Shown: positions 25,120 through 51,535 of the stretch, one piece after another
Numbering within the stretch: the first letter of the stretch is position 1
How the letters are laid out: each line of letters starts with the position of its first letter
NCBI RefSeq assembly: GCF_029227855.1
Contig: NZ_CP074356.1
Direction: 5' to 3' (one strand)
DNA from: Escherichia coli
GTDB taxonomy: Bacteria > Pseudomonadota > Gammaproteobacteria > Enterobacterales > Enterobacteriaceae
DNA: 64,000 nt
Notes under the pieces: model-generated
What the model was told of the DNA's origin: nothing
Database searches by the model: none
The model's input: the letters and a program-made list of their open reading frames with translations, nothing else
Made by a program: the position numbers and the translations under genes

Positions 25120-25146
25120 TTAGCCAGATAACACAGTGTTATGACA

Positions 25147-25172
25147 GCCCGCCGGTTCAGGCGGGCTTTTTT
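25147..25172 (+). terminator. rho-independent terminator downstream of lom
   Basis: GCCCGCC-GGTTCA-GGCGGGC hairpin followed by TTTTTT. Confidence 0.75.
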
Positions 25173-25177
25173 GTGGA

Positions 25178-27583: not shown

Positions 27584-27861
27584 AAGATTTAACACTCAAA
27601 TTTGCAGACAGGGCCGACTTTTCGGCCTTTATGGAGAGCATTGGCTATTATGATGACGAGTCGATGCAGGATGATATTCTTATTGACGTGATAGGTAATG
27701 TGTACAAAGAAACCGGAGAACTGACTGAAGATGGCGAACCGGTATGTGTTAAGGAAGACGGATATTTTGTAAACGTGCGCATCATTAATGATTCGCAAAT
27801 ATCGTCAATATTCGATGAATACGTGGTTGCTGTTGAGCATCAACTTCGTGGCTGGATGTGA
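27580..27861 (+). CDS. hypothetical protein (93 aa) between the two tail fibre genes
   Basis: ORF starting at the stf stop overlap (ATGA); acidic product; function not assignable. Confidence 0.45.
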   Translation: MKDLTLKFADRADFSAFMESIGYYDDESMQDDILIDVIGNVYKETGELTEDGEPVCVKEDGYFVNVRIINDSQISSIFDEYVVAVEHQLRGWM

Positions 27862-27870
27862 GGAAGAAAA

Positions 27871-28911
27871 ATGGCTACATCGACAGTAATTCCTGATGAC
27901 ATCAAAACGCTAAAATCCGACGTTAGCAAATTAAAAAACGATCAAGGAAGCTACGCAACAAAATTATATGTAGACAGCAAAGATGAAATCGTTGGTGACT
28001 GGTCTGTTTCATGGTATCAGCAGGTATTGCCAACTAGCGGAGCTATATTTGGGAGAAAACTCCGCTCAACTCACAGGACGGCAGGTGTTGAGGATGCGTA
28101 TTGCGAACTATACCTCAAAAAATGGATAGACAGTCCAGGTAACGCAATGGCGCGCCTTAACCTGAACGATAACGGGACAAACATTTGCTGGGACTTTACC
28201 AACCTTTATGGCGGTACGATGATTTTTCCCGGTGACAGCGGATACCTCAAAATGGGTAACTGCCTTATGTCATACAGCAAGCGTGGAAGTAACGCGCTTA
28301 TTAAATTTGATTACACCGACACATTACAGATCAAATATGCCAATCATGGGTCAACCATGACATTAAACACACAGGGAACCGCTTATGCTGGTGTTACTGC
28401 TCAATTGTGGGGCAACTCCAGCCGTCCTGTTGTTTATGAAGTCGGTGTTGATGGTGGCGCTTATATGTTCTATGCGCAGAAAAATACCGATAACACCTAT
28501 ATGTTAAGCGTTAATGGTGCATGTCATGCCACCGCATTTAACCAGCATTCCGACCGGGATCTGAAAGACAACATTCAGGTGATCGATAATGCAACCGACC
28601 GCATCCGTAAAATGAACGGCTATACATACACGCTTAAAGAAAACGGTATGCCCTATGCTGGTGTCATTGCACAGGAAGCTCTGGAAGCAATCCCAGAAGT
28701 TGTAGGTTCCGCAATGAAATATCAGGACGGTGCGAGCGGATCGGAAGGTGAAGAAGGTGAACGTTATTACACAGTAGATTATTCTGGTGTTACTGGCTTG
28801 CTTGTTCAGGTAGCCAGAGAGTCAGACGACAGAATAACAGCACTGGAAGAAGAAAACGCAGAATTAAGACAAAGATTATCTGCAATTGATGCGGCGCTTG
28901 CGTCTAAATAA
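27871..28911 (+). CDS. tail fibre/spike protein with C-terminal intramolecular chaperone (endosialidase-chaperone-like) domain
   Basis: 346-aa product; C-terminal region (SDRDLKDNIQVIDNATDRIRKMNGYTYTLKE...YAGVIAQEA...LEEENAELRQRL) is typical of self-cleaving tail-fibre chaperone domains. Confidence 0.7.
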   Translation: MATSTVIPDDIKTLKSDVSKLKNDQGSYATKLYVDSKDEIVGDWSVSWYQQVLPTSGAIFGRKLRSTHRTAGVEDAYCELYLKKWIDSPGNAMARLNLNDNGTNICWDFTNLYGGTMIFPGDSGYLKMGNCLMSYSKRGSNALIKFDYTDTLQIKYANHGSTMTLNTQGTAYAGVTAQLWGNSSRPVVYEVGVDGGAYMFYAQKNTDNTYMLSVNGACHATAFNQHSDRDLKDNIQVIDNATDRIRKMNGYTYTLKENGMPYAGVIAQEALEAIPEVVGSAMKYQDGASGSEGEEGERYYTVDYSGVTGLLVQVARESDDRITALEEENAELRQRLSAIDAALASK

Positions 28912-28917
28912 TATTAA

Positions 28918-28940
28918 GGGGCCGAGCGCCCCGTTTTATT
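28918..28940 (+). terminator. hairpin terminator-like element after the tail fibre gene
   Basis: GGGGC-CGAGC-GCCCC followed by GTTTTATT. Confidence 0.5.
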
Positions 28941-29247
28941 GGGTAGGATGAAAATGGATATAACACCTTTCCTTCATGCGCTTTGTGCTGTGGCTGCGCA
29001 GCTACTGATTGGTCTTTTTACCGGGAACTGGGCTTACGGGGCGATAGCCGGTTGTACGTTCTTCATTGCGCGTGAACACACCCAGGCAGAATATCGCTGG
29101 ATCGAAATGTTCGGGCATGGCAAGCGAATGAATATGCCGTGGTGGGGCGGTTTTGATCCACGCGCGTGGGATGTGGCAAGCCTGATGGATTTTGCTGTGC
29201 CGGTGGTGGCGTGTCTGCTGGTCTGGCTGTTGGTTAATCGTGGGTGA
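28939..29247 (+). CDS. hypothetical small membrane protein (102 aa)
   Basis: ORF with two hydrophobic segments; prophage accessory region. Confidence 0.45.
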
Positions 29248-29459
29248 AAAAAGGTGGGCTGTATATGCAACGGAGGAAGAAACCACGTTGCTGGAAGCCT
29301 GGAAGAAGTATCGGGTGTTGCTGAACCGTGTTAATACAACAACTGCACCGGATATTGAATGGCCAACAGTACCCATTATCGAATAGTGCATTACGAACTG
29401 CAGGATATTATATGGGATAATATTCTGCAGTTTATTGGGGCTGTATTTTAAAAAGGTGT

Positions 29460-30791
29460 TTATTTTGAGTGAATTATCACCTTGTTTTTTCCGGTTCTTT
29501 TGGCTTGATATAACGCTTTGTCGGCATTGACTAACATTTCAGATGGACTGAGATTATTCTCTTTTGAAGCAAAGCAACCAATACTGACAGTTATTTTCTC
29601 AGGTCCATGCGATAATAATTTTTCCGAGCATTGCTCTTCAATGTTTTTTCTGATTCGCTCTGCAATTGATAGCAAGAGTTTTTGAGTATTACCTTTAATG
29701 ATAATACCGAACTCCTCACCGCCTAAGCGCCCTAATATATCCTCTTTCCTGATGGATTTTTTTATTATTCTGGTAACCATTACTATGACTTGATCACCCA
29801 TATGATGCCCCCATTTGTCATTGATGCTTTTGAAACTGTCAATATCTAACATTATTACTGAGAAATCATGGTGTTTTGATATATTCTTCAATGAGTCAAT
29901 AAAGTATCTTCTATTGTATGTATTCGTTAGTGGATCATGAATTGCCATATGATTAGCATGATTTAATTTCCTGAAAACATAATACATGAGTGTTGAAATG
30001 ATATAAATCATTGATATCAATTCAAGAAATTTTGTCATGTACCATGCAGGATGGGATTTATCAATAAAATACAATAAAATTAGATTATTGCATACTGACA
30101 CTATACTAATAAGTATTATACACAACCATATTTTTGAGTAATTACGTATGCTGATGCATGAGCTGATAAGTAATACAAGCCAAAATACTGATATTATTTT
30201 GGTGTACACGATATTCCACGTCGACAAATGACGATTCAGCGAGTATTGTATAATATTAAGACTATATTTTATATGGTCACTGCTTAGATTTTTTGCTACA
30301 AACGGAGTAATAAAAAGAATTAATATTGACAAAACAACAATTATTATGTTTCTTTTATCTTCTAAAATACTTTTATTTTTAACATTGGTGGAATAAACAG
30401 CCAGAAAGATTATAGATATAAAGCTGAACTGACGGAATAGATAATATATTGCGATATCATTTGATTTCTGATAGATTGTAGATAAATCGTTACCTAACGG
30501 AGATAAAGAAATAATAGCCACTTCTAATAAATAATACGTGTTGCTCAAAAACGCGAATGAAAGAATTAAGAGATAACTTTGTCTCTGATTAGAAACATAG
30601 TAAAGCAATAGAAAAATAAAAATCATCAGGTTTATGAAAAAAAGCCCAATAATGAAAACACTATAACTTATTTGTGTTGTTTGTGTTATGTATATTCCAT
30701 TATTTTCATGCAGTAACAAAAATATAATAGAGATGCATGAAAATAAAAAGATGAAGATTTTTATTTTTATAGGTACCTGGTTGATAATCAT
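29460..30791 (-). CDS. membrane-anchored GGDEF-domain protein (putative diguanylate cyclase), prophage cargo
   Basis: 443-aa product; multi-helix hydrophobic N-terminal part and C-terminal GGDEF domain with RLGGEEF motif; strongly AT-rich. Confidence 0.75.
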   Translation of the reverse strand: MIINQVPIKIKIFIFLFSCISIIFLLLHENNGIYITQTTQISYSVFIIGLFFINLMIFIFLLLYYVSNQRQSYLLILSFAFLSNTYYLLEVAIISLSPLGNDLSTIYQKSNDIAIYYLFRQFSFISIIFLAVYSTNVKNKSILEDKRNIIIVVLSILILFITPFVAKNLSSDHIKYSLNIIQYSLNRHLSTWNIVYTKIISVFWLVLLISSCISIRNYSKIWLCIILISIVSVCNNLILLYFIDKSHPAWYMTKFLELISMIYIISTLMYYVFRKLNHANHMAIHDPLTNTYNRRYFIDSLKNISKHHDFSVIMLDIDSFKSINDKWGHHMGDQVIVMVTRIIKKSIRKEDILGRLGGEEFGIIIKGNTQKLLLSIAERIRKNIEEQCSEKLLSHGPEKITVSIGCFASKENNLSPSEMLVNADKALYQAKRTGKNKVIIHSK

Positions 30792-31040
30792 GTACGCACC
30801 TGAGAATGATATATATATAATATGTATCGCTACAAATAACGATAATTTCTTACTGGTGATAGTATACTATTATTCTGGTTAATCGCTGTCAAATTGATGA
30901 TTTTGGTTAGTATTGCAATAGCGAAGGGTTTGATCCGGTAAGACTGGCTAGGCAAGGCTATACCAAAAAATCAGTGTAGGTTCAGAAAACGATGCACCAT
31001 ACAATCATCAATAATTTCAAATTGTCCATTGTGCATAAAT

Positions 31041-31084
31041 CATAAAGAAAACCGCAGCACGTCGTATGCAAGAACGTGCTGCGG
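31041..31084 (-). terminator. orphan rho-independent terminator-like hairpin (minus strand)
   Basis: CCGCAGCACG...CGTGCTGCGG stem followed on the minus strand by TTTTCTTTAT; no minus-strand ORF upstream of it. Confidence 0.4.
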
Positions 31085-31383
31085 TTGGCTGGTGAGCTTT
31101 CGATAGTGCGAGTATTGAATGATTTCCAGACGTTACCGATTTTATATAACTGCAGTGGAATTATTCAACACACAGGCAAAACGGAATAAGCTGAGAAAAA
31201 AGCGTGCTTTCCCAATCTGGGGCAAATCACGTCTGAATGACACCTGAAAACAGGTGGTAGCCTCAAGAAGGCTTGGAATATTCTTCTTTAATGTTATGTA
31301 ATTCATTGATTTTTCTTGTACGATTTTAAGACATTTATTCCAAGAAAAATTTTTAACTCTTTGATTTTTCGACTCTGTATCAT

Positions 31384-31445
31384 CGGTCTCGAAAACCGGA
31401 GTAGGGGCAACTCTACCGGGGGTTCAAATCCCCCTCTCTCCGCCA
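31384..31445 (+). tRNA. 3' fragment of a tRNA-Ser gene (anticodon arm to CCA end; 5' part missing), likely prophage att remnant
   Basis: CGGTCTCGAAAACCGGAGTAGGGGCAACTCTACCGGGGGTTCAAATCCCCCTCTCTCCGCCA matches the 3' part of E. coli tRNA-Ser (CGA anticodon, serU-like) from memory; no matching 5' acceptor strand upstream. Confidence 0.7.
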
Positions 31446-32114
31446 CTTTATCAATGACTTATCTCCCGACTTCCCGCCTTGCTTTTCCTAAACAGAACAA
31501 TCGTAGAATATTCTTGAAGGGTTAGATCGTCACTGTTTTCTGTTCGATACTGTGACATTCAGCACTTGATTCGCTATGGATCTGACAGGAAGGTTTCGAG
31601 CGAAAATCTGCAATTATTCAGTCGTTTTCTTATCGGTCACCATTATTCTTTTAGACATTGATCCTACAAAGCTGCCGCAAAGTTGGTGGTGGGAACTGAA
31701 GTTGCGTAGAGAAGGGGGCAATAATTGAGCAAAAAAAGGAACGCGGCCGTCAGATTAAAGCCGCGGGACAAAGTCCATAATTTCCAAGAGTTGTTGAATT
31801 TCCCAGCTTTTTTGAAAGCCTTTGTATCATACTAACAAGTAAAAAAGGTTTAAATACCAAAATTAACCTATATTTCTGGTTAGCTTTACCATGACAGATG
31901 ACTTGCTCCTGGAGACATTGGCGCAGCCAGTCTGTATTGGTGAGTTGTGTATTTATTGTTCGCCGTTTTCTCAGTTTTTTTCTACAGACGTAATAAAAAA
32001 GACACGTCTCAAGCATGAGCGTGTCTGAGTTTGTCTTATTTATTTGTCTTGGTAAATTATTGTCGTTACTACCAGGCACTGTTCTGTTAAATAATTGAAG
32101 TCAGCGCAAAAAAA

Positions 32115-32765
32115 TCAATGAAACATCATCTCCTCGACCACTTCTTCGCTACTCAACTGATAGGGATAATACGTTGGCCAGTTTTCCATTTCATTTAATA
32201 AAGATTGTTGTGAATCATTACCCATAAAAATGTGAAAATGAGATGATTTTCGTGGTGCATTTATATGATCGCTAAATTGAATATATTTAGGGGCTTTGCT
32301 TTCAGGATCTTTACATTCGAATAAGTAACGAACACCTTTCTTGCCTGATTTATAGGTGAGTATTTTGTATCCATCGTAATCATATTTACAGGATGTTGTT
32401 TCATTATTTCTATGGAATTCAACAATGCCGTCCTCAATGCCAATCATCTCGATATCTGTCACATAACCTTTGCGATAATAATCTTTAATTTCAGCAAATG
32501 TTTTGGTTTTATCTGCATCCGCTTTTTTCTGAAAGACGGGGTCAAGTTTGCCACTTTGCAGTAAAGGATAAACGGATTGCCAGACTCCATCCCAGTCACT
32601 GAGCATTCGATTTTGTACATTGGCATCATCAAAAACACCATTAGCAGCTTTTTGTTCGATCTCTGTTAAAGGTTTGCCGTGTGAGTGATGACCATGCGAA
32701 AAGGCAGGAGCGCTAACAATAAAGACGCCTAAAGCAACAGCCAGTTTATGAAGACGAATCGCCAA
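32115..32765 (-). CDS. zinT: zinc/cadmium-binding periplasmic protein ZinT
   Basis: 216-aa product with signal peptide and His-rich HGHHSHG motif; matches E. coli ZinT (YodA). Confidence 0.9.
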
Positions 32766-32954
32766 AACAGTTTCCTCCAGAGTTAATGTATATGATATGT
32801 AATGTTATATTGTAACATATAACAAAATGCAACAACTCTTAGGAGACAAGAGAATAGTTCTCACAGGTGTGCTTATCTATCTTATTGAAATAAAATAAAT
32901 TATGTCGATGATTTGAGGTTGATGACAAACGAAACATAACTTGATGTGATCTGC

Positions 32955-32995
32955 GTAGGCCGGATAGGGCGCTCGCGCCGCATCCGGCAGGGATA
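32955..32995. repeat. REP (repetitive extragenic palindrome) element
   Basis: TAGGCCGGATAGGGCGCTCGCGCCGCATCCGGCAG palindromic unit in the zinT-msrQ intergenic region. Confidence 0.7.
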
Positions 32996-33021
32996 ACGCG
33001 TACTTTGTCGGCAATATGAAG

Positions 33022-33657
33022 TTATAGAGATAATTTGTTGTGAACCTGCTTGCGTAACCGGTTGAAAAGGGAAAGCAACTTCTTATACCGTAAGGCTAAA
33101 AGCAGTACCGCCAGCCCAGCGTAGATGAGTGGCTGCGGTGAAATAATCTTCACTGACCACAGATAATGTATTGGGGCCAGGATCGCGACAAGATAGACGA
33201 AGTTATGCAACTGTTGCCAGTGCTTGCCGAGTTTTCGCTGCATCGCCTGGGTTGAAGTAAACGCTAAAGCAAGCAAAATAACCCAGCTGATAATTCCTAA
33301 CGTTAAATAAGGCCGGGTAATTAACTCCTTACCTAATAACGCCAGATTATTCACGCCCAGCTCCAGTAATGCGTAACTGGTTAAATGCAGTGTCGCCCAG
33401 GCAAAGCACCATAAGCCTAACAGGCGGCGAGTGCGTATCAATAACGGCTGTTTTGCGTAGCGTGCCAGAGGTGTGATTAACAAGGTCGCCAGCAAAAATT
33501 TCAGTGCAGTGCGACCAGTAAAATGCTGAATATCTTTCACTGGATCGGCACCCAGTCCACCGTGATTGATCGCCCAGACCAGCCAGAGAAACGGCAACAA
33601 TCCGGCAAGATGCAGGCAAACTTTCATCCATGTCACCTGTTTTGCTGTCAGACGCAT
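33022..33657 (-). CDS. msrQ: methionine sulfoxide reductase haem-binding membrane subunit MsrQ
   Basis: 211-aa polytopic membrane protein matching E. coli MsrQ (YedZ); adjacent to msrP. Confidence 0.9.
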
Positions 33658-34668
<1,011 letters not shown>

Positions 34669-34770
34669 TCACACTTTTTTGTCTTTAGCCAGAAAGAGCC
34701 GTTTACTGTTAATCTGTCAGGGAGTGTCCTCCCTAACAGTAGCAGAGATCTGCTTTTACATATTTATGCA

Positions 34771-35184
34771 TTAACTGCCACGATAGGTTGAATACCCATA
34801 TTGGCTAAGTAATAAAGGCACATGATAATGCTCGTTCACTTTATTAATATGAAATTCAACGGGGATCTCAGGGAAGAAACTTTCAAGATTTTGTTTCTTG
34901 AAATAGTCCCCGGTTTTAAATACGACACGGTAATCGCCCGTAGTCGCAGTTTGCTCGGGCCACAGTGCCTTAATTCGTCCATCCTTATCTGTTTTGGCGG
35001 TATTAAGTTGTAACCAGCCGTTATCCGCTTTCTTTTCAAGAGTGACTGTCACGTCGGCAGCGGGTTTTCCTGTTTGCTGGTTCAAAATGTGCACGCTAAG
35101 AATGTTTTGTTGTGCAGCATAGACCAAAGAAGGTAATGAAAATGCAGCCGTTACTACGGAGAGTACTAAATAACGCTTTAACAT
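34771..35184 (-). CDS. hiuH: 5-hydroxyisourate hydrolase (transthyretin-like)
   Basis: 137-aa product ending YRGS, matches E. coli HiuH (YedX). Confidence 0.9.
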
Positions 35185-35316
35185 GTTTATATCCTTGTCA
35201 TGTGAATGAGTTTTGAGGATAGCGAAAAAACGTCTAGGGTAACCTTACAGCAGCATTACAATTTTGTAATGAACCAGGCTGTTTCTATAACATATGATTT
35301 ATGGCATATTATTTTC

Positions 35317-35988
35317 ATGAAGATTTTACTTATTGAAGATAATCAAAGGACCCAGGAGTGGGTAACGCAGGGGCTTTCCGAAGCGGGTTATGTCATTGAT
35401 GCCGTTTCTGATGGCAGAGATGGGCTTTATCTTGCGCTGAAGGATGATTATGCATTGATCATTCTGGATATTATGCTTCCGGGTATGGATGGCTGGCAGA
35501 TCTTACAAACGTTAAGAACAGCAAAGCAAACCCCTGTTATTTGCCTTACTGCAAGGGATTCTGTCGATGACAGAGTCAGAGGGCTGGACAGTGGAGCAAA
35601 TGATTATCTGGTAAAACCTTTTTCATTTTCTGAGTTGCTGGCAAGGGTTCGGGCACAATTAAGGCAACATCACGCTTTGAATTCAACATTAGAAATCAGT
35701 GGCTTAAGAATGGACTCTGTTAGTCAAAGTGTGAGCAGGGACAATATCAGTATTACACTGACGCGCAAGGAGTTTCAGTTACTTTGGCTACTGGCCTCCA
35801 GAGCTGGCGAGATTATCCCCAGAACGGTTATTGCGAGTGAAATTTGGGGAATCAACTTTGATAGTGATACCAATACGGTGGACGTCGCCATTCGCAGGCT
35901 CCGCGCAAAAGTTGATGATCCTTTTCCTGAAAAGCTAATCGCCACAATCCGGGGGATGGGCTATTCATTCGTAGCGGTAAAAAAATAA
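35317..35988 (+). CDS. hprR: two-component response regulator HprR (OmpR family)
   Basis: From ATG 35317 the product MKILLIEDNQRTQEW... (223 aa) matches E. coli HprR (YedW). Confidence 0.9.
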   Translation: MKILLIEDNQRTQEWVTQGLSEAGYVIDAVSDGRDGLYLALKDDYALIILDIMLPGMDGWQILQTLRTAKQTPVICLTARDSVDDRVRGLDSGANDYLVKPFSFSELLARVRAQLRQHHALNSTLEISGLRMDSVSQSVSRDNISITLTRKEFQLLWLLASRAGEIIPRTVIASEIWGINFDSDTNTVDVAIRRLRAKVDDPFPEKLIATIRGMGYSFVAVKK

Positions 35989-37346
35989 TGAAAAGATTAT
36001 CTATAACCGTCCGTTTAACCTTGCTTTTTATATTGCTGCTGTCTGTTGCTGGCGCTGGAATTGTCTGGACTCTCTATAATGGCCTGGCAAGTGAGTTGAA
36101 ATGGCGCGATGATACAACACTCATTAACCGGACAGCGCAGATCAAGCAGTTGTTAATTGATGGGGTAAATCCAGATACGTTACCTGTGTACTTTAACCGG
36201 ATGATGGATGTTAGTCAGGATATCTTGATCATTCATGGTGATAGCATCAACAAAATTGTTAACCGGACGAATGTCAGTGATGACATGTTAAATAACATAC
36301 CTGCTACTGAGACAATCAGCGCAGCTGGCATTTACAGAAGCATTATTAATGATACAGAGATAGATGCTTTACGAATTAATATTGATGAAGTTTCGCCATC
36401 ATTAACGGTTACTGTGGCTAAATTGGCTTCAGCCAGACATAACATGCTTGAACAGTATAAAATTAATAGCATTATAATTTGCATTGTCGCCATTATACTT
36501 TGCTCAGTATTAAGTCCGCTGTTAATCAGAACGGGGTTACGAGAGATCAAAAAGTTGAGTGGTGTAACGGAAGCGCTGAATTATAACGATAACCGGGAGC
36601 CTGTTGAGGTTAGCGCATTACCGAGAGAACTAAAACCTCTTGGGCAGGCGTTGAATAAAATGCACCAAGCCTTAGTCAAAGATTTTGAACGCCTAAGTCA
36701 ATTTGCTGACGATCTCGCTCATGAACTTAGAACGCCAATTAATGCATTACTGGGTCAGAATCAGGTTACGCTCAGTCAAACCAGAAGTATCGCTGAATAT
36801 CAAAAAACAATTGCCGGAAACATTGAAGAGCTGGAAAATATTTCGCGGTTAACAGAGAACATACTGTTTCTTGCCAGGGCAGATAAAAACAATGTTTTGG
36901 TGAAACTGGATTCGCTTTCTCTCAATAAGGAAGTCGAAAATTTGTTGGACTATCTTGAATACCTTTCAGACGAGAAAGAGATTTGCTTTAAGGTCGAGTG
37001 CAATCAGCAAATTTTTGCGGATAAAATTTTACTGCAACGAATGTTATCGAATCTTATTGTTAACGCTATTCGATATTCACCAGAAAAATCGCGCATTCTT
37101 ATAACCAGTTTTCTTGATACCAACGGCTCTCTTAATATTGATATCGCCAGCCCTGGAACGAAAATTAATGAGCCTGAAAAACTCTTCCGTAGATTTTGGC
37201 GCGGAGATAATTCGCGTCATTCCGTAGGTCAGGGACTTGGTCTTTCTTTAGTCAAAGCGATTGCCGAATTGCATGGAGGAAGTGCTACGTATCACTATCT
37301 CAATAAGCTTAATGTGTTCCGGATTACGTTACCGCAAAGAAATTAA
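35988..37346 (+). CDS. hprS: two-component sensor histidine kinase HprS
   Basis: 452-aa product with two TM segments, H-box (HELRTP) and ATPase domain; matches E. coli HprS (YedV). Confidence 0.9.
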   Translation: MKRLSITVRLTLLFILLLSVAGAGIVWTLYNGLASELKWRDDTTLINRTAQIKQLLIDGVNPDTLPVYFNRMMDVSQDILIIHGDSINKIVNRTNVSDDMLNNIPATETISAAGIYRSIINDTEIDALRINIDEVSPSLTVTVAKLASARHNMLEQYKINSIIICIVAIILCSVLSPLLIRTGLREIKKLSGVTEALNYNDNREPVEVSALPRELKPLGQALNKMHQALVKDFERLSQFADDLAHELRTPINALLGQNQVTLSQTRSIAEYQKTIAGNIEELENISRLTENILFLARADKNNVLVKLDSLSLNKEVENLLDYLEYLSDEKEICFKVECNQQIFADKILLQRMLSNLIVNAIRYSPEKSRILITSFLDTNGSLNIDIASPGTKINEPEKLFRRFWRGDNSRHSVGQGLGLSLVKAIAELHGGSATYHYLNKLNVFRITLPQRN

Positions 37347-37453
37347 CATAGGGCTTCAGTACGCCATAAATTAACCGTGAAAAAACGCAGCCACGTCGTG
37401 AGTACTAACGCAGCTGCGATTGATTATGCGCTTACATTCAAACGTAACAGGGA

Positions 37454-38305
37454 TTAACCCGCGTAAGCTGCCAGCATTTCCTGCGCCGCCAGTTTACCCA
37501 ACGCATTCGCTGCGAAAGGACTGTCGCCGGTGAGAACTTTACGGTCCTTATGTACTCGCCCGGTGATGTCGTCATTAATAATGTTCATGCCCATTTTCTT
37601 CAGCTCTTCGCCGAAGTACCAGGTGAGATGACCCGGCATATAGCCTATCTCTGGCGTTTGTTTGTCTGCGGCGTCTGGGAATGCGCAAATGGAATAACCA
37701 TTCAGTGGGTTATCGCCGTGGCGAAGCGCCAGAAAAGCCGCCGGGCCGTGGCAAAGGGAGATAACAAAACGGTCATTTTTGATTGCCCACTGTAAAGCGG
37801 CAGCCACGTCCTGGCTTTCAGGTAAACCAATAAGTGCGCCATGACCACCAGGAACAAAGATTGCTGCATATTCGCTGTCTGCGTTGAGGCTGGCGACAAC
37901 ATCCGCGAGTTTCTTCGGATTGCGGAACAACGATTTATGCTGCTCAAAGAATGGCATTACTTTTTCATCTTTGTGCGGCATAGCCCAGTATTCAAACTTG
38001 GTCATCAGACCGGAAATGGTCGCCACTTCGAATTCGAAACCTGCAGCGTGGAGATGATACAACGGCAGCAACGTTTCAATCGGATGGTTACCGGTCGAGA
38101 ACAGTTTTCCGTTATCGGTCGGCAAATAACGTTCGTCCGCGGCGATCACCAGAATTTTATGTTTACCGCGATACGGTTTTGGATAGTCCACGCCATCAAG
38201 ATCAGAGACAGGACTGGTATATTGGCTAAGCGAATATTCTGAAGGGAAGAATGCATTATCTTCAGCAATATCGACCTGCGGATTTTTACTTGTTTGAACA
38301 GTCAT
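37454..38305 (-). CDS. hchA: glyoxalase III / chaperone Hsp31
   Basis: 283-aa product MTVQTSKNPQVDIAEDNAFFPSEYS... matches E. coli HchA. Confidence 0.92.
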   Translation of the reverse strand: MTVQTSKNPQVDIAEDNAFFPSEYSLSQYTSPVSDLDGVDYPKPYRGKHKILVIAADERYLPTDNGKLFSTGNHPIETLLPLYHLHAAGFEFEVATISGLMTKFEYWAMPHKDEKVMPFFEQHKSLFRNPKKLADVVASLNADSEYAAIFVPGGHGALIGLPESQDVAAALQWAIKNDRFVISLCHGPAAFLALRHGDNPLNGYSICAFPDAADKQTPEIGYMPGHLTWYFGEELKKMGMNIINDDITGRVHKDRKVLTGDSPFAANALGKLAAQEMLAAYAG

Positions 38306-38812
38306 AGTGTATTCCTTATTGTTGCTTAGTTAGGGTAGTCACTATATTTGCGACTGAGCTGGTCGCTATTTTTAACCAGGCTGGAAAATTGAGTCAATAT
38401 ATCGAAAGCGGTAGTCGGCGGGTGTAAGTATGTAATGATGATGCTGCACTGGTGTTGAATATTATTCACGCCAAATTTTCCTTATTGAGCTACGTCGTCG
38501 CAAGTGGCCTCAATGATTTTAGACCATTATCAGAGGTACGGGGCGGCGGGGAGAGATTTAGTGCTGTGGAATATTGTGGTGCTGATGAATATTTATATCC
38601 CGGATTGGTAGAGAAAAAGCTTTTTCTATGCACTTTTTTTGCAAATATTTCTGTATGGGAGGCGGTTTTGTTGCAGATTAATTCATAAAGAAATGCATTT
38701 GGGTGTTGGCTGGAAGAGTCGCGGGTAGATGTTATTGTGCCAGCAGGGGCAGGGTAAGGTACTGTATCGATATGCTTTGGCAATTGCATGTGCCGCAGAG
38801 GGAGATGAAATG

Positions 38813-38856
38813 CCAATAAAAAAGCCTGAGTTCGATGAGGGACGAACTCAGGCTAG
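38813..38856 (-). terminator. rho-independent terminator downstream of the porin gene
   Basis: AGCCTGAGTTCG...CGAACTCAGGCT hairpin followed on the minus strand by TTTTTTATT. Confidence 0.7.
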
Positions 38857-38896
38857 TGTTAACTTTTACAGTAACACGCCGCGGCGCGTTGGCTGA

Positions 38897-40090
38897 TTAG
38901 AACTGGTAGACTAAGCCCACAGCAACGATATCATCGGTAGCGATGCCGTTTGCTTTGTAGAAGTCGTCGTCGTTGTCCAGCAGGTTGATTTTGTAATCAA
39001 CGTAGGTGGACATGTTTTTGTTGAAGTAGTAAGTCGCACCAATATCAACGTATTTAACCAGATCTTTATTGGTGTAACGTGGGTCGCCGTTGCCGTCATG
39101 AGCCCAACCACCTAAATCCTTACCTTTAGATTGCAGGTAAGCGATGGACGGGCGTAGGCCGAAGTCGAACTGATACTGAGCAACAACTTCAAAGTTTTGG
39201 GTTTTGTTCGCAATACCACCTCTGTCAATGTCGTTATTGTCTTTTCCGCTGCCATATGCAGTCATATTACGTGTTTCTGCATACATTGCCGCTAAATAGA
39301 CATTATTCGCATCATATTTAGCACCGACTGTCCATGCTTCAGCTGTTTCACCACCAGCATATTTATTCGAGCGTTGCTCACCTAAACCAGTAGCACGTTG
39401 GTTATCAGTACGGTCAGAGTTTGAATATGCAGCCCCGAGGCTTAACCCGAAGTCAAAGTCATAGGAAGTGGACATACCGAAACCGTCACCATTTTCTTTA
39501 GACAGTTTACGATTATTACCATTACCAGAACCTTCTTGATCCCAAAGCCCACCCGATCCTTCATTATTACCCTGATATTGCAGAGCAAAGTTCAGGCCAT
39601 CGACCTGACCAAAGAAGCCATTGTTACGGTAGGTTGCAACACCATTAGCACGACCGTTCATGAAGTTGTCGGCACCAGCATAGGTATCGCCACCAAATTC
39701 TGGCAGCATATCGGTCCATGCTTCGATGTCATATACGACACCGTAGTTACGACCATAGTCGAAAGTACCATTCTGACCAAAGCCTAAACCTGCAAATGCC
39801 AGACGCGTTGCGGTATTACCTTTGTCGCTTTCAGGACCGTTTGCGCCAATGTTAAATTCCCACTGACCATAACCAGTGAATTGGTCAGCGATCTGAGTTT
39901 CACCTTTGAAACCGATACGGGCATATGACATGTCGCCATCGCTGCCAGCATCATCAGAGAAGTAGTGCAGGCCCGCTACTTTTCCGTACAAATCCAGTTT
40001 ATTACCATCTTTATTATAGACTTCAGCCGCATTTGCTGCGCCAGCAACTAATAACGCCGGGACCAGCATTGCCAGAACTTTTCTTTTCAT
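38897..40090 (-). CDS. yedS: OmpC/OmpF-family outer membrane porin (yedS-type, apparently intact)
   Basis: From ATG 40090 the product [37 protein letters not shown]... with C-terminal ...VGLVYQF; position between hchA and yedR. Confidence 0.85.
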
Positions 40091-40638
40091 TATGTATTCC
40101 CTTGTGATTATAATCTTCATGAATATATCAATAAGTGCCGTTATCCAAAAAAAAAGCACATTTGGATACTATTCTATGAAGTTCATTTTATTTTAAAGAT
40201 TACATGTAACAAATGTATTTAAAAGATTTCAAAATGTTTCTAATTTATTTAATATAATTCAGAATTATGAATTCTAAATATAAATATTCATGAAAATTAT
40301 AAATGTATATCAATATGTTATGAGTTGAGTGGAAACATGGGGGGTATCAATGAGTGTTGCGCCAAACGGCTGGTGTGATCACGCGCACATTAATGAAGGC
40401 ATAAAAAAAGCCGGCATCATGCCGGCCCAAAAAATATAAACAAGACGATAAAAGGCTAATAACGGAGGCATCATGACACAGAAAAATAAAAAGGTATAAT
40501 TGTAATCAGTGCTAATATATTGATTGAATGAATTAATAAAGCCGATATCAAAGATAAATAAAATCGCTCAAAACGATTTTTCCTGTATTCACTGCCATTG
40601 CGCAAAAGTTATCTATTTGTTCAAAAAATGATTGAGTC

Positions 40639-41022
40639 TTGACTGGCTCATCCAATGTGGAAAAATGTGACTTTTATCACATAATAGTACTAAGTCTGAA
40701 TTTTCCGGGTTATCTCAAAATGGAATACGGTTCGACAAAGATGGAAGAGAGACTCTCTCGCAGCCCTGGCGGCAAATTGGCTTTGTGGGCTTTCTATACA
40801 TGGTGTGGCTATTTTGTCTGGGCAATGGCGCGTTACATCTGGGTGATGAGCCGGATCCCCGATGCCCCCGTGTCGGGATTTGAAAGCGATTTAGGCTCTA
40901 CCGCGGGAAAGTGGTTAGGGGCACTGGTCGGATTTTTATTTATGGCTCTGGTCGGGGCATTGTTAGGCAGCATTGCCTGGTATACCCGACCTCGTCCCGC
41001 ACGTAGCAGACGCTATGAATAA
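40639..41022 (+). CDS. yedR: inner membrane protein YedR (start uncertain; alternative ATG at 40720)
   Basis: Product ...MEYGSTKMEERLSRSPGGKLALWAFYTWCGYFVWAMARY... with two hydrophobic helices. Confidence 0.7.
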   Translation: MTGSSNVEKCDFYHIIVLSLNFPGYLKMEYGSTKMEERLSRSPGGKLALWAFYTWCGYFVWAMARYIWVMSRIPDAPVSGFESDLGSTAGKWLGALVGFLFMALVGALLGSIAWYTRPRPARSRRYE

Positions 41023-41061
41023 AAACTGCTAAGGTTGCGACTCTTTGGCAACGGGGCGCGT

Positions 41062-41757
41062 ATGGACGTACAACACTGGCAGGCACAGTTCGAAAACTGG
41101 TTGAAAAACCATCATCAGCACCAGGACGCGGCCCATGACGTATGTCATTTTCGCCGTGTCTGGGCTACGGCACAGAAGCTGGCGGCAGATGACGATGTCG
41201 ATATGCTGGTGATTTTAACCGCCTGTTATTTTCACGATATTGTGAGCCTGGCGAAAGATCATCCGCAACGGCAGCGTTCTTCAATCCTGGCGGCAGAAGA
41301 GACGCGTCGCCTGCTCCGTGAAGAGTTCGTGCAATTTCCGGCGGAGAAAATCGAGGCCGTTTGTCATGCCATTGCCGCTCACAGTTTCAGCGCGCAAATC
41401 GCCCCCTTAACAACGGAAGCTAAAATCGTCCAGGATGCGGATCGGCTGGAAGCCCTGGGGGCGATTGGCCTGGCGCGCGTGTTTGCCGTTTCAGGGGCAT
41501 TGGGCGTGGCGCTGTTTGATGGCGAAGATCCGTTCGCACAGCATCGCCCGCTGGATGATAAACGCTACGCGCTGGATCATTTCCAGACTAAGTTGCTGAA
41601 GCTACCGCAAACCATGCAAACCGCAAGAGGCAAGCAGCTGGCGCAGCACAACGCGCAATTTTTAGTCGAGTTTATGGCGAAGCTCAGTGCCGAACTGGCG
41701 GGGGAGAATGAAGGTGTCGATCACAAGGTGATAGATGCGTTTTCACCCGCGGGCTGA
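41062..41757 (+). CDS. yedJ: HD-domain phosphohydrolase YedJ
   Basis: From ATG 41062 the product [21 protein letters not shown]... (231 aa) with HD motif. Confidence 0.88.
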
Positions 41758-41823
41758 GCGCGTGGCCCTAAATGGCTGTAATTATGTTAACCTGTCGGCC
41801 ATCTCAGATGGCCGGTTAAATCT

Positions 41824-43242
41824 ATGCAGGAAAATATATCAGTAACCGATTCATACAGCACCGGGAATGCCGCACAGGCAATGCTGGAGAAACTGCTGCA
41901 AATTTATGATGTTAAAACGCTGGTGGCGCAGCTTAATGGTGTGGGTGAGAATCACTGGAGCGCGGCAATTTTAAAACGTGCACTGGCGAATGACTCGGCA
42001 TGGCACCGTTTAAGTGAGAAAGAGTTCGCCCATCTGCAAACGTTGTTACCCAAACCACCGGCACATCATCCGCATTATGCGTTTCGCTTTATCGATCTAT
42101 TCGCCGGAATTGGCGGCATTCGTCGCGGTTTTGAATCGATTGGCGGACAGTGCGTGTTTACCAGCGAATGGAACAAACATGCGGTTCGCACTTATAAAGC
42201 CAACCATTATTGCGATCCGGCGACGCATCATTTTAATGAAGATATCCGCGACATCACCCTCAGCCATAAAGAAGGCGTGAGTGATGAGGCGGCGGCGGAA
42301 CATATTCGTCAACACATTCCTGAACACGATGTATTACTGGCGGGTTTTCCTTGTCAGCCATTTTCGTTGGCTGGCGTATCGAAAAAGAACTCGCTCGGGC
42401 GGGCGCACGGTTTTGCCTGCGATACCCAGGGCACGCTGTTCTTTGATGTGGTGCGCATTATCGACGCGCGTCGTCCGGCGATGTTTGTGCTCGAAAACGT
42501 CAAAAACCTGAAAAGTCACGATAAAGGAAAAACGTTCCGCATCATCATGCAGACGCTGGACGAACTGGGCTATGACGTGGCTGATGCAGAAGATAACGGG
42601 CCAGACGATCCGAAAATCATCGACGGCAAACATTTTCTGCCGCAGCACCGTGAACGCATCGTGCTGGTGGGGTTTCGTCGCGATCTGAATCTGAAAGCCG
42701 ATTTTACCCTGCGTGATATCAGCGAATGTTTCCCTGCGCAGCGAGTGACGCTGGCGCAGCTGCTGGACCCGATGGTCGAGGCGAAATATATCCTGACGCC
42801 GGTGCTGTGGAAGTACCTCTATCGATATGCGAAAAAACATCAGGCGCGCGGTAACGGCTTCGGTTATGGAATGGTTTATCCGAACAATCCGCAAAGCGTC
42901 ACGCGTACGCTGTCTGCGCGTTATTACAAAGATGGCGCGGAAATTTTAATCGATCGCGGCTGGGATATGGCCACGGGTGAAAAAGACTTTGACGATCCGC
43001 TGAATCAGCAACATCGTCCACGTCGGTTAACGCCTCGTGAATGTGCGCGCTTAATGGGTTTTGAAGCGCCGGGAGAAGCGAAATTCCGCATTCCGGTTTC
43101 GGACACTCAGGCCTATCGCCAGTTCGGTAACTCGGTGGTCGTACCGGTCTTTGCCGCGGTGGCAAAACTGCTTGAGCCAAAAATCAAACAGGCGGTGGCG
43201 TTGCGTCAGCAAGAGGCACAACATGGCCGACGTTCACGATAA
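41824..43242 (+). CDS. dcm: DNA cytosine-5 methyltransferase Dcm
   Basis: 472-aa product with C5-MTase motifs (FAGIGG, PCQPFS, ENV, QFGNSV). Confidence 0.93.
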
Positions 43243-43693
43243 GGCCACTCGCAGCAAAAATATGCGCGCGATTGCCACGCGTGATACGGCGATTGAGAAG
43301 CGCCTCGCCAGTCTGTTAACCGGGCTGGGCCTGGCGTTTCGCGTTCAGGACGCCAGTCTGCCCGGACGCCCGGATTTTGTCGTTGATGAATATCGCTGCG
43401 TGATATTTACCCACGGCTGCTTCTGGCACCATCATCACTGCTATTTGTTTAAAGTGCCTGCGACTCGAACCGAGTTCTGGCTGGAGAAGATAGGTAAAAA
43501 TGTTGAACGCGATCGCCGCGATATCAGTCGCTTGCAGGAACTCGGCTGGCGCGTATTGATTGTCTGGGAGTGTGCGTTACGTGGGCGCGAGAAGCTGACG
43601 GATGAAGCGCTTAGCGAGCGTCTGGAAGAGTGGATCTGCGGCGAAGGTGCCAGCGCGCAGATCGACACGCAGGGGATTCATTTACTCGCTTGA
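43223..43693 (+). CDS. vsr: very-short-patch repair endonuclease Vsr
   Basis: From ATG 43223 the product [28 protein letters not shown]... (156 aa); overlaps the dcm 3' end as in E. coli. Confidence 0.92.
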
Positions 43694-44602
43694 TGCGTCC
43701 TGAATAACGGGCGCAACTACGGGTTTTGCCGGGAAGAGATATTTTCCCAACGTGACCAGTAACACCGCGAAGACAATCACGCCGAGCGCCAGCCATTCAA
43801 TCTTCGACAGCGTCTCTCCGCCCAGTCCCGTACCCAGCAAGACCGCGACCACCGGGTTAACGTAGGCGTAGCTGGTGGCGAGAGCCGGACTGACGTTGCG
43901 GATTAAATACATATAAGCGTTAATGGCGATAATCGAACCAAACAGCGCCAGATAGCCGACCGCAAGGAAGCCTGAAAGGGAAGGGAGCGCCGTCAGTTTT
44001 TCACCCGCAATCATCGACGCGATCATTAACACCACGCCTGCCGCCAGCATCTCAATCGCACCCGCCATCATCCCTACAGGTAAGGTAATGCGCGAGCCAT
44101 AAACCGAGCCAAACGCCCAGCTAATCGAGCCGATTAAAATCAGAATCGCGCCCCACGGATTGCCGCTTAAATTTCCACCGCTATTGAGCATGATGATTCC
44201 GGCAAGCCCAATGGCGATACCCACCCATTCCAGTTTGCGCGTTTTAATGCCAAACAGGCGGCTGAAGCACAGGGTAAAGAGGGGCACGGTTGCAACCACT
44301 ACGGCGGCGATGCCGGAAGGAACATTTTGATGCTCGGCAACCGTCACCATGCCATTACCGACAGCCAATAATAACAGGCCAATCAGTGCGGCATTGAGCA
44401 GCGGACGTAGCGGGGGGAGTTTGTGTCCGCGTAGTAGCAAAAATGCCAGCAATAAAATACCGGCTGCCAGGAATCGAACGCCCGCCATCATTAACGGCGG
44501 CCAGCTTTCCACGCCAATCCGAATGACAAAATAGGTTGAGCCCCAAATGATATACAACGCAAACAGCGCGCCAAAAAGCGGTAACAACTGGCGGAAACGC
44601 AT
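43682..44602 (-). CDS. yedA: EamA/DMT-family transporter YedA
   Basis: 306-aa ten-helix membrane protein at the conserved position. Confidence 0.88.
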   Translation of the reverse strand: MRFRQLLPLFGALFALYIIWGSTYFVIRIGVESWPPLMMAGVRFLAAGILLLAFLLLRGHKLPPLRPLLNAALIGLLLLAVGNGMVTVAEHQNVPSGIAAVVVATVPLFTLCFSRLFGIKTRKLEWVGIAIGLAGIIMLNSGGNLSGNPWGAILILIGSISWAFGSVYGSRITLPVGMMAGAIEMLAAGVVLMIASMIAGEKLTALPSLSGFLAVGYLALFGSIIAINAYMYLIRNVSPALATSYAYVNPVVAVLLGTGLGGETLSKIEWLALGVIVFAVLLVTLGKYLFPAKPVVAPVIQDASSE

Positions 44603-44774
44603 AATCCCTCACGGTGGAAATAAAAAGGTGGTTCATAGTAAACGTGAAAATCATTCTGCTGGCGAGAGATATAATTGCACTTGATTGTTAAAAAAATGTT
44701 GACCTGTGAAGCAAGTATCAGAGCTGCCGTTTTTGCTTCATACTTACACCCTTCAACAATAAAAATGAGAGGGA

Positions 44775-45692
44775 ATGCTTTTGGCCGGGAGTAGTTTACT
44801 GACGTTGCTCGATGATATCGCCACACTGCTGGACGATATCTCCGTGATGGGCAAACTGGCGGCGAAGAAAACCGCCGGTGTATTAGGGGATGACTTATCG
44901 CTCAATGCGCAACAAGTTTCAGGCGTGCGGGCCAACCGGGAACTTCCCGTGGTCTGGGGCGTGGCGAAAGGATCGCTGATCAATAAAGTGATTCTGGTGC
45001 CGCTGGCGCTGATCATCAGTGCGTTTATCCCGTGGGCGATTACGCCACTGTTGATGATTGGCGGCGCGTTTCTCTGCTTTGAAGGGGTAGAGAAAGTGCT
45101 GCATATGCTGGAGGCGCGTAAACATAAAGAAGATCCGGCGCAGAGTCAGCAGCGTCTGGAGAAGCTGGCGGCGCAGGATCCGCTGAAGTTTGAAAAAGAC
45201 AAAATAAAAGGGGCGATTCGTACCGATTTTATATTGTCTGCGGAAATCGTCGCCATCACGCTGGGGATTGTGGCAGAAGCGCCGTTGCTTAATCAGGTGC
45301 TGGTGCTTTCAGGCATCGCGCTGGTAGTGACCGTGGGCGTCTACGGTCTGGTAGGGGTTATCGTTAAGATTGATGACCTGGGGTATTGGCTGGTGGAAAA
45401 ATCCAGCGCGCTGATGCAGGCATTAGGTAAAGGGTTATTGATCATTGCGCCCTGGTTGATGAAGGCGTTATCGATTGTCGGCACGCTGGCGATGTTCCTC
45501 GTCGGCGGCGGGATTGTGGTACATGGTATTGCGCCGCTGCATCACGCCATTGAACATTTCGCCGGGCAGCAAAGTGCGGTGGTGGCGATGATATTACCGA
45601 CTGTTATAAATCTGATTCTTGGATTTATCATCGGCGGCATCGTGGTGCTGGGAGTGAAAGCAGTAGCGAAAATGCGCGGTCAGGCACATTAA
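44775..45692 (+). CDS. yedI: DUF808 inner membrane protein YedI
   Basis: 305-aa membrane protein at the conserved position. Confidence 0.85.
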
Positions 45693-45770
45693 TACTCGCA
45701 CTGGCTATTATGCAAAATTCGCCATCTTCAACTAAGGTGAACAAGTTTCACTCGAAAAAAGGAGGCGAGT

Positions 45771-45953
45771 ATGAGCTTTATGGTTAGTGAGGAAGTTACG
45801 GTTAAAGAGGGCGGCCCGCGGATGATTGTCACCGGATACTCCAGCGGTATGGTTGAGTGTCGTTGGTATGACGGTTACGGGGTCAAGCGGGAAGCTTTTC
45901 ATGAAACCGAGCTTGTTCCGGGGGAGGGGAGTCGTTCTGCGGAAGAAGTTTGA
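45771..45953 (+). CDS. yodC: small protein YodC
   Basis: 60-aa ORF MSFMVSEEVTVKEGGPRMIVTGYSSGMVECRWYDGYGVKREAFHETELV... Confidence 0.8.
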   Translation: MSFMVSEEVTVKEGGPRMIVTGYSSGMVECRWYDGYGVKREAFHETELVPGEGSRSAEEV

Positions 45954-46123
45954 AAGGGTATCATTTACACCAGGCCGGATCACATCCGGCCTGGTGTGCC
46001 AATGCCTGCAATGAATGATAGTCGCGTCTTATCATGCCACCATTATAAAATTATCGCTGTTTTGCGGTACGTTATCGCCGGGTTATGCCAGAATCATAAA
46101 AAAGCAGGTTGGGAGTCGTCAGG

Positions 46124-48648
<2,525 letters not shown>

Positions 48649-48827
48649 TTACCAGGATGATTCTCAAAACAGCACAAATTATCAAAGATGATTTTTTCGG
48701 GAGCGATCCCGTTGACGCCAGAGCCACCAAGGGGTGACGCGCGTCACATTTCTATTCATAAGTAGCGTTAATCATTCATATCACGAATATTTTCTTGTCA
48801 GCGAAAAAAATTGCGGATAAGGTGATG

Positions 48828-48914
48828 AACACATCAGATTTCCTGGTGTAACGAATTTTTTAAGTGCTTCTTGCTTAAGCAAGTTTCATCCCGACCCCCT
48901 CAGGGTCGGGATTT
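48828..48914 (+). ncRNA. dsrA: DsrA small regulatory RNA
   Basis: AACACATCAGATTTCCTGGTGTAACGAATTTTTTAAGTGCTTCTTGCTTAAGCAAGTTTCATCCCGACCCCCTCAGGGTCGGGATTT matches E. coli DsrA including the terminal GC-rich hairpin and T-run. Confidence 0.9.
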
Positions 48915-48927
48915 TTTTATTGTGCAT

Positions 48928-49155
48928 TCAACGATTCACTTCAGAGACGCTGAAGTCATGAATATCCAGTTCGAAGGCATCCGCCAATTCACGCCATGTA
49001 TGATATTCACGTCCATCGACGCTAACGTGTTCAGAATCGTTCTGGCTGCGATGAACTTCGCTTTCGCTAATTTCATTGATCGCCGCCAGCAGGGCATCGA
49101 CATCGACGCTGACCTCACGTTTTGCGGTATCGCTGTACTCTTTTGCGGTTTTCAT
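48928..49155 (-). CDS. yodD: stress-induced small protein YodD
   Basis: From ATG 49155 the product MKTAKEYSDTAKREVSVDVDALLAAINEISESEVHRS... (75 aa). Confidence 0.85.
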   Translation of the reverse strand: MKTAKEYSDTAKREVSVDVDALLAAINEISESEVHRSQNDSEHVSVDGREYHTWRELADAFELDIHDFSVSEVNR

Positions 49156-49227
49156 CATCTTTCCTCGCAACCGTTACTCTGTTGTTGCCGCCAGTCGTTA
49201 AGTCCGCCTGGCATCTCTTAAGTATAG

Positions 49228-49506
<279 letters not shown>

Positions 49507-49549
49507 TCTAATTCAGCCTGACTGGTGGGAAGCCACCAGTCAGAATGTG

Positions 49550-50173
49550 TTAGCGCATGTTGACAAAAATACCATTAGTCACATTATCCGTCAGTCGGAC
49601 GACATGGTAGATAACCTGTTTATTATGCGTTTTGATCTTACGTTTAATATTACCTTTATGCGATGAAACGGTCTTGGCTTTGATATTCATTTGGTCGGAG
49701 ATTTGAATGGTTCCCTGACCTGCCATCCACATTCGCAACATACTCGATTCGGTTCGGCTCAATGATAACGTCGGCATATTTAAAAACGAGGTTATCGTTG
49801 TCTCTTTTTTCAGAATATCGCCAAGGATATCGTCGAGAGATTCCGGTTTAATCGATTTAGAACTGATCAATAAATTTTTTCTGACCAATAGATATTCATC
49901 AAAATGAACATTGGCAATTGCCATAAAAACGATAAATAACGTATTGGGATGTTGATTAATGATGAGCTTGATACGCTGACTGTTAGAAGCATCGTGGATG
50001 AAACAGTCCTCATTAATAAACACCACTGAAGGGCGCTGTGAATCACAAGCTATGGCAAGGTCATCAACGGTTTCAATGTCGTTGATTTCTCTTTTTTTAA
50101 CCCCTCTACTCAACAGATACCCGGTTAAACCTAGTCGGGTGTAACTACATAAATCCATAATAATCGTTGACAT
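49550..50173 (-). CDS. rcsA: colanic acid capsule regulator RcsA (LuxR-type HTH)
   Basis: 207-aa product [32 protein letters not shown]... with C-terminal LuxR HTH. Confidence 0.92.
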
Positions 50174-50462
50174 GGCATACCCTCACTCAATGCGTAACGA
50201 TAATTCCCCTTACCTGAATATTTCATCATGACTAAACGGAACAACATGGGTCACCTAATGCGCCACTCTCGCGATTTTTCAGGCGGACTTACTATCCCGT
50301 AAAGTACTGTATAATTTGCCTGGAATTGTCTTAAAGTAAAGTAAATGTTGCGATATGTGAGTGAGCTTAAAACAAATATTTCGCCGCAGGAGTATCCTGG
50401 AAGATGTTCGTAGGTATTATTTTTCGGATAATCCTTAGGATAACATGATAAACGTTACGGAA

Positions 50463-51248
50463 TTATATTAATGGCAATTCACTAATAATATCAGCCAGCA
50501 AATTAAACATCTCACTGAATAAATGTTCGCAAAAAGGCGCAATTAACGGCATTAATGCCGCCATTAAAGAGATACCGACAGTCAGAGTTAATGGAAATCC
50601 AATAACAAAAATGGATAATTGCGGGGCCATACGATTCAGTAAACCTAATGCCAGATTCAGGGTCAGCAGCAGAGTAATGAGCGGTAACGCCAGCATCAGC
50701 CCGTTAAGGAAAATCAAACTCCCTGCTTTGGTGAGTGCCAGAAACGCATTGCTGTTCAACGGTTCGCCACCAATTGGCAGGGTGTGAAAGGTATCGACCA
50801 GCAGTGAAATCAACCATAAATGACCGTTAAATGTCAGGAACAGCAGTAACGCCAGCATATCCATGATACGCGCTAAAACGGGCATATTGAGATGGCTGGC
50901 CGGATCGACAAACGTCGCAAATGACAGCCCCATTTGCAGACCGATAATTTCACCAGCGGTTCGCACAGCGGCAAAGGCAAATTGCATGGTAAAACCAAGC
51001 GCAATGCCGATCAGGATCTGCTGCACGGCCAGCCACAGAGCAAAGAACGAAAAAACAGGAACATCGTTGGCAGGTAATGATGGGGCAATAGCGAACGTGA
51101 TCATCATTGCCAGACCCAGTTTTACCCGTTTCGGCACGCTGCGTTCGCTCAGAATTGGCGCGGTAGAAATGAGCGCCAGCACGCGCAGTAACGGCCAGAA
51201 GTACAGACTTAGCCAGGATAGCCATTGATCGCTTGTCACCTGCAACAT
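50463..51248 (-). CDS. fliR: flagellar export apparatus protein FliR
   Basis: 261-aa polytopic membrane protein; last gene of fliLMNOPQR. Confidence 0.92.
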
Positions 51249-51256
51249 TGTACGGG

Positions 51257-51526: not shown

Positions 51527-51535
51527 TTTGCCTCT

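Follow-up and report, generated by a model that had tools for sequence, protein, structure and literature searches.

The yedS locus and its reading frame

Within the window, by which we mean the whole 64,000-nucleotide stretch of Escherichia coli DNA analyzed here, a porin gene lies on the minus strand with hchA and hprS on its 3′ side and rseX, drpB (yedR), yedJ, dcm and vsr on its 5′ side (Table 1). Synteny with annotated genomes places this gene at the yedS locus, which is bounded by rseX-drpB-yedJ-dcm and hchA-hprS. The original prediction, made from the letters of the sequence, had put it between hchA and yedR, a position that the open reading frames and the annotated genomes both bear out. 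The 9.2-kb neighborhood of yedS is 96.9% identical to K-12, and the annotation of K-12 MG1655 has rseX at the same place. This small RNA gene, immediately upstream of yedS and unmentioned in the original prediction, carries its own terminator at 40428 to 40408. Farther along the window, the DsrA sRNA (Rfam, 102.5 bits) is found at 48828..48914 on the plus strand; as in K-12, yedP lies on one side of it and dsrB/rcsA on the other.

Table 1. Features of the yedS locus in the window (positions count from the first nucleotide of the window)
Feature	Position	Strand	Details
hchA (glyoxalase III)	37454..38305	-	Flanks yedS downstream; from the ORF and annotated genomes
Terminator-like hairpin	38823..38854	-	12-bp stem with 7 G-C pairs, then TTTTTATT
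yedS coding sequence	38897..40090	-	397 sense codons and TAA
Signal peptide	40028..40090	-	Codons 1-21; Sec type; predicted cleavage between ANA and AE, mature protein AEVYNK...
yedS upstream region	40091..40402	-	312 nt from rseX to the ATG; 5′ leader and candidate promoters
Candidate sigma-70-like promoter, weak	40212 to 40185	-	TTGTTA, 16 nt, TAAAAT
Putative CRP-type site	40374..40389	.	TGTGATCACGCGCACA; pattern match between rseX and yedS
rseX sRNA	40403..40492	-	Directly upstream of yedS, same strand; Rfam RF01401, 96.7 bits (gathering score 50)
drpB (yedR)	40741..41022	+	Divergent flank; end from the ORF and syntenic annotated drpB, probable start from the 93-aa RefSeq form

The open reading frame listing and its translation give a single frame that runs from an ATG at 40090 to a TAA at 38899-38897, and translation of 38897..40090 on the minus strand contains no internal stop or frameshift. 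The gene is thus intact, as had been proposed. When called mechanically, the ORF extends 5′ to a GTG at 40159; we took the ATG as the start because the signal peptide begins there and because the near-identical gene of strain GF60 has its RefSeq start at this codon. That gene (WP_000824405.1) is annotated as intact and is 99.9% identical to the window copy. A Shine-Dalgarno-like AAGGGA lies 8-9 nt 5′ of the ATG. The signal peptide aligns with those of OmpC, OmpN and OmpF, a homology by which YedS is predicted to be cleaved after ANA, and the protein ends in GLVYQF. Both the complete signal peptide and the C-terminal phenylalanine of the original prediction can be read in the translation and aligned with these three porins. 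Beyond the stop codon, a strong terminator-like hairpin begins after 43 nt. We rejected the idea that a sequencing artefact had produced a falsely intact frame, since the same intact allele is present in independent complete genomes.

Porin family, predicted fold and relation to OmpC

Two profile searches confirm the membership in the OmpC/OmpF porin family that had been assigned to the gene. Pfam Porin_1 (PF00267) matches residues 27-397 over model positions 1-337 of 337 (E=9.9e-144), and the NCBIfam "porin OmpC" subfamily model scores YedS at 547.8 bits, above its cut-off of 484. At the amino acid level, YedS is 72.6% identical to OmpN, 67.5% to OmpC and 64.0% to OmpF. In a sequence search of solved structures, OmpK37 (6v78, E=2.7e-147) came out on top, ahead of OmpK36, OmpC, PhoE and OmpF; as the best solved relatives, OmpK37, OmpK36 and OmpC had E-values of 1e-124 to 1e-147. 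An AlphaFold model of YedS built on a 75-sequence alignment is predicted to have 16 beta-strands (pLDDT 78.4); this alignment replaced one of 12 sequences, with which the model was unusable (pLDDT 34.7). Foldseek matched the predicted structure to OmpK37, OmpC and OmpF with a probability of 1.00 and TMt of 0.90-0.93. Normalized to query and target length, the TM-scores were 0.81 and 0.91 for 6v78 and 0.81 and 0.92 for OmpC (2j1n).

The pore itself appears conserved in these comparisons. The loop-3 motif PEFGGD occupies residues 130-135, and K37, R58, R96, R147, D127 and E131 (precursor numbering) align with OmpC and vary hardly or not at all across the 12- and 75-sequence alignments. We take the first four positions to be the basic cluster of the OmpC/OmpF constriction and the last two to be its acidic loop-3 side. 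The window gene is confirmed as yedS, a general porin of the 16-strand type in the OmpC/OmpN subfamily, with the 16-strand barrel itself predicted from the model. The role in permeability that the original prediction had suggested follows from homology, and the predicted barrel together with the conserved constriction residues lends it good support.

Genomes with a window-type gene carry it under the RefSeq pipeline label "ompC: porin OmpC". This label sits on genes identical to the one in the window, which also passes the NCBIfam OmpC model, and could be taken to mean that the window gene is the ompC of this strain. However, the model works at the subfamily level: OmpN passes it as well (593.8 bits), and true OmpC reaches 751.7 bits. 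Likewise, the identity of YedS to K-12 OmpC is below its identity to OmpN. In K-12, true ompC adjoins micF and rcsD at a distance of about 280 kb, whereas the window gene is syntenic with yedS, and this difference in locus already refutes the ompC identity. MicC pairing, at z=-4.38 for true ompC, falls to z=-0.79 for yedS. We consider it next to impossible that the gene is ompC. YedS shares with this major osmoporin the fold, the PEFGGD motif, the constriction residues, a C-terminal YQF and the subfamily model, but differs in sequence and locus, in a leader without a MicC-type pairing site and in about 30 extra surface-loop residues. This extra length (397 aa, compared to 367 in OmpC) is located in surface loops L4-L7. 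Because pipelines label yedS as OmpC, genome-based prediction of resistance can be confused.

The sequences closest to YedS are those of the minor or quiescent porins OmpN, OmpK37 and Salmonella OmpS2. These are paralogues, and K-12 ompN adjoins micC and ydbK. YedS is also longer than OmpN-type porins (397 aa vs 377) in loops L4-L7. A porin adjoining yedJ-dcm is kept in Citrobacter (77-83% identity), Superficieibacter, Klebsiella pneumoniae (70%), Enterobacter, Lelliottia and others. The K. pneumoniae example, a 381-aa protein of strain ATCC 13883 (L029:4001-5146), is syntenic with yedS. We rejected OmpK37 as the positional orthologue of YedS, as it (6v78) shares no more than 72.5% identity with the K. 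pneumoniae yedJ-dcm porin. Of the 80 related loci listed, those of E. coli and E. albertii alone have rseX beside the porin, the hchA flank likewise occurs only in Escherichia, and no locus is from Salmonella. The equivalence of yedS with Salmonella ompS1 comes solely from a synonym in the literature, where the names are equated as "yedS (ompS1)" (PMC2731931).

Alleles, decay and selection at the locus

In K-12, yedS is a pseudogene. It is annotated as such in MG1655 (b4496), and the annotation of a K-12 derivative reads "frameshifted; internal stop". Alignment and translation revealed two lesions: codon 162, a glutamine codon (Q162) in the window, is the first stop in K-12, and one nucleotide is deleted at gene position 666. 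The K-12 gene also has two in-frame 3-nt indels, and its length of 1193 nt is not divisible by three. The window allele has neither of the two lesions, so the contrast with K-12 drawn in the original prediction proved accurate, as did the porin likeness when the protein was aligned with OmpC (67.5% amino acid identity). Over 100% of the gene, the two alleles share about 90% nucleotide identity; their leaders and signal peptides are identical, and they differ mainly in loops L4-L6. Other copies are broken differently. In O157:H7 strain ECP19-598, a frameshift brings the first stop to codon 215; the yedS of LR-64-1 is truncated by the deletion of its C-terminus together with hchA. Because the locus decays repeatedly, yedS is dispensable in some lineages.

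Intact alleles are nevertheless widespread. They encode proteins of 392-404 aa in eight sampled genomes (GF60, 10035776-3, DG342-2, EC15, 8178, KCJ3K291, C2 and E69), and E. albertii has an intact yedS too. A megablast search found a full-length YedS-type gene in 1661 of 5426 genomes. Public databases hold hundreds of intact YedS protein variants, and one YedS-type sequence is present on at least 1000 contigs. Nearly all of the best 120 protein matches are full-length (393-405 aa), with three shorter entries of 364, 385 and, marked "partial", 393 aa; the names among the matches listed include "outer membrane protein yedS" and "outer membrane protein S1". Moreover, Warner et al. (2013, PMID 23318808) reported that YedS is functional in an isolate resistant to carbapenems, where it affects the entry of these drugs and is involved in the resistance. 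Having an intact yedS is common, ordinary and already known, is not special to the strain in the window and, with alleles this widespread and already reported, adds nothing as a discovery.

The particular allele in the window is uncommon and belongs to a minority. At 99% identity or more it was found in 60 of 20,395 records and in about 1% of complete genomes; the two of these 60 that were checked were both intact. The exact protein is absent among the best 120 matches, the nearest of which differ at 3-4 residues. A single difference separates the alleles of the window and GF60: at residue 144 (gene nucleotide 430, window position 39661) the window has ATG for methionine and GF60 has CTG for leucine. 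Leucine occupies this position in all of the closest, position-comparable database proteins except P0002, and methionine, in the loop-3 sequence DNFM, is the residue of the wider porin family. We compared window positions 28000..52000 with 5,426 complete RefSeq E. coli genomes: across these 24 kb, the best match has only 99.1% identity, and only 21 records reach 99%. The source strain thus has no close representative in this collection. Its nearest relatives over this interval include O166:H15 and ESBL isolates.

The same locus can also hold quite different porins. Strain 165 has a 357-aa porin there (L003:4001-5074) with only 63% protein identity to YedS, although its 5′ leader and signal peptide are identical to those of yedS. 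Counting matches over at least 80% of the length, 2565 of 5426 complete genomes carry a gene of this 357-aa class. The class comprises sub-classes at about 89% nucleotide identity (ST131 and APEC O2:K1) and about 74% (a Nissle derivative). Besides the class in the window, two or more other porin classes, all deeply diverged, are found at the yedS locus. Since a second porin class with an identical leader occurs at the same place, the yedS locus is multi-allelic across E. coli.

We compared the window allele with eight intact alleles by the Nei-Gojobori method. In the barrel (strands and periplasmic turns), dN/dS was 0.00-0.06; dS was 0.2-0.7 among Escherichia alleles and 1.25 in the comparison with Citrobacter. 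Purifying selection on the barrel is thus strong and long-term. Together with the Pfam and NCBIfam matches, these ratios rule out a chance ORF. Among alleles, 68 of 148 loop positions vary, compared to 18 of 218 in strands and turns (Fisher p=9e-17). Variation is concentrated in the external loops L1, L2 and L4-L7, with conservation of loops 3 and 8 and of every periplasmic turn, and the signal-peptide DNA is identical across all ten alleles compared. The profile of nucleotide identity is a mosaic in which near-identical blocks alternate with blocks at 33-75%. In the loops, a simple Nei-Gojobori count gave dN/dS of 0.1-0.4 and dS of 0.8-2.2. Positive selection on the loops is unsupported, because the ratio does not rise above 1. 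With such ratios and a very high dS, the loops look like old recombining cassettes and not like the product of recent positive selection. The deep allele classes, the loop-restricted variation and the recurrent loss of the gene are properties of the species, not of the window, and would suit a small comparative study.

Expression and possible roles

The region between rseX and yedS is extremely AT-rich, with a GC content of 20% at 40100-40299, and it is 95-98.5% conserved in every allele class, pseudogene carriers included. We found nine promoter-like matches upstream of yedS, compared to a mean of 7.2 in shuffled sequence. As they are no more frequent than in the shuffles, these matches are candidates only, and the weak sigma-70-like promoter in Table 1 is one of them. 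A T tract at about 40148..40156, some 58-66 nt before the ATG, is flanked by the inverted-repeat arms TATCCAAA and TTTGGATA. It contains nine T residues here, eight in K-12 and seven in strains 165, EC15 and 8178, and its length could alter the structure of the leader or the spacing of a promoter.

The CRP-type match closer to rseX is a putative regulator site for yedS, rseX or drpB. Its K-12 counterpart ggTGTGAtcaggcGCACAtta, centered at 2033766, bound in vitro with a Kd of 4.9 nM and was assigned to yedS (PMC12871828, 2026 preprint, Table 1); the window site differs from it in the spacer only. The K-12 yedS transcript is detectable and falls 2.5-fold on induction of sigma-E (PMC2731931). The neighboring rseX is reported to be repressed by H-NS/StpA (PMC8313858). 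Salmonella ompS1 is a quiescent gene that H-NS and StpA repress and LeuO relieves (PMC4264507); OmpS1 is also activated by OmpR. Both ompS1 and yedS have an AT-rich upstream region, and by analogy yedS would also be expected to have low expression. From the repressed neighbor and the quiescent ompS1 we infer that basal expression of yedS is low, and the analogy suggests a poorly expressed, "quiescent" porin.

Small RNAs did not emerge as regulators. In a seed-restricted duplex prediction, the pairing of MicF, MicC and RseX at the yedS start region was not above that of shuffles, although the controls were clear (MicF-ompF z=-5.1, MicC-ompC z=-4.4). Whole-molecule duplexes of the three sRNAs with 165-nt yedS leaders were uninformative, as the MicF-ompF control itself reached only z=-1.7. 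Warner et al. reportedly described control of yedS by MicF. With no yedS signal while the controls are clear, the simple pairing test does not support such control, and we make no claim of sRNA control of yedS.

The intact frame might belong to a silent relic, never usefully expressed, that has so far escaped disabling mutations. The independent inactivation of the locus in K-12, O157:H7 and LR-64-1 fits this idea, as do the extreme AT-richness upstream and promoter matches that do not exceed chance. However, the low dN/dS of the barrel, at a dS as high as 0.7 in Escherichia and 1.25 against Citrobacter, indicates long-term selection on the protein, and the porin next to yedJ-dcm has been kept across Citrobacter, Klebsiella, Enterobacter and Lelliottia. 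The conservation of the promoter and leader and the functional YedS reported by Warner et al. also argue against a relic, and we regard this explanation as quite unlikely.

Instead, the product of the intact yedS allele in the window is very probably a general-diffusion porin of the OmpC/OmpN type that has 16 strands and forms trimers, quiescent and probably poorly transcribed in the laboratory. We infer trimer formation, channel activity, low expression and the acting regulators. The precursor would be exported by Sec and cut after ANA, and the C-terminal YQF signal would direct its insertion in the outer membrane. There it would form a water-filled trimeric channel, narrowed by loop 3 with its PEFGGD motif opposite the conserved basic cluster. 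Under laboratory conditions, the gene is probably poorly transcribed, and silencing of the H-NS type may act on the 20%-GC upstream region, by analogy with Salmonella ompS1. YedS would be relevant chiefly in cells that have lost OmpC and OmpF or in which silencing has been lifted. Once expressed, it would allow the entry of small hydrophilic solutes, including beta-lactams and carbapenems. An intact spare porin of this kind can keep these drugs entering a strain that lacks OmpC and OmpF, which gives the gene a modest practical relevance.

The original prediction had also raised a role as an alternative phage receptor. This is a guess, with which the variable surface loops are consistent. In its general form, the idea is that YedS serves mainly as a surface target, a phage or colicin receptor or an antigen, and that pressure on this target, not transport, maintains the diversity of alleles. 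The confinement of allele variation to the external loops speaks for it, and the mosaic nucleotide identity and the presence at the locus of at least two other deeply diverged porin classes, with leader and signal peptide identical, point the same way. Furthermore, OmpC-family porins are known receptors of lambdoid tail tips (for example, PDB 9wcb). Against it, the loop dN/dS is not above 1, no phage, colicin or antibody that targets YedS is known or was found here, and a receptor must be expressed, a requirement that applies to yedS as well. We think it very unlikely that this is the main role of the protein. A further proposal holds that the locus is a long-lived, multi-allelic polymorphism under phage, colicin or immune pressure, in which three or more deeply diverged porin classes have a promoter, leader and signal peptide in common, the loop cassettes are mosaic and inactivation recurs. 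The uncommon window allele would then be the specific receptor of a porin-binding lambdoid tail tip like that of the prophage 15 kb away, or a variant that escapes it; we judge this proposal unlikely.

The prophage in question has a lambdoid tail module at about 16000..29000 of the window, some 10-20 kb from yedS, with genes for a tape measure protein, minor tail protein L, the host-specificity protein J and two tail fibers. Its J protein is encoded at 20973..24452 on the plus strand. Over its C-terminal 294 residues, J matches the OmpC-binding "A8 gpJ" (PDB 9wca/9wcb) with 395 bits, compared to 328 bits for the C-terminal part of lambda J, a similarity that suggests a porin receptor for the prophage in the window.
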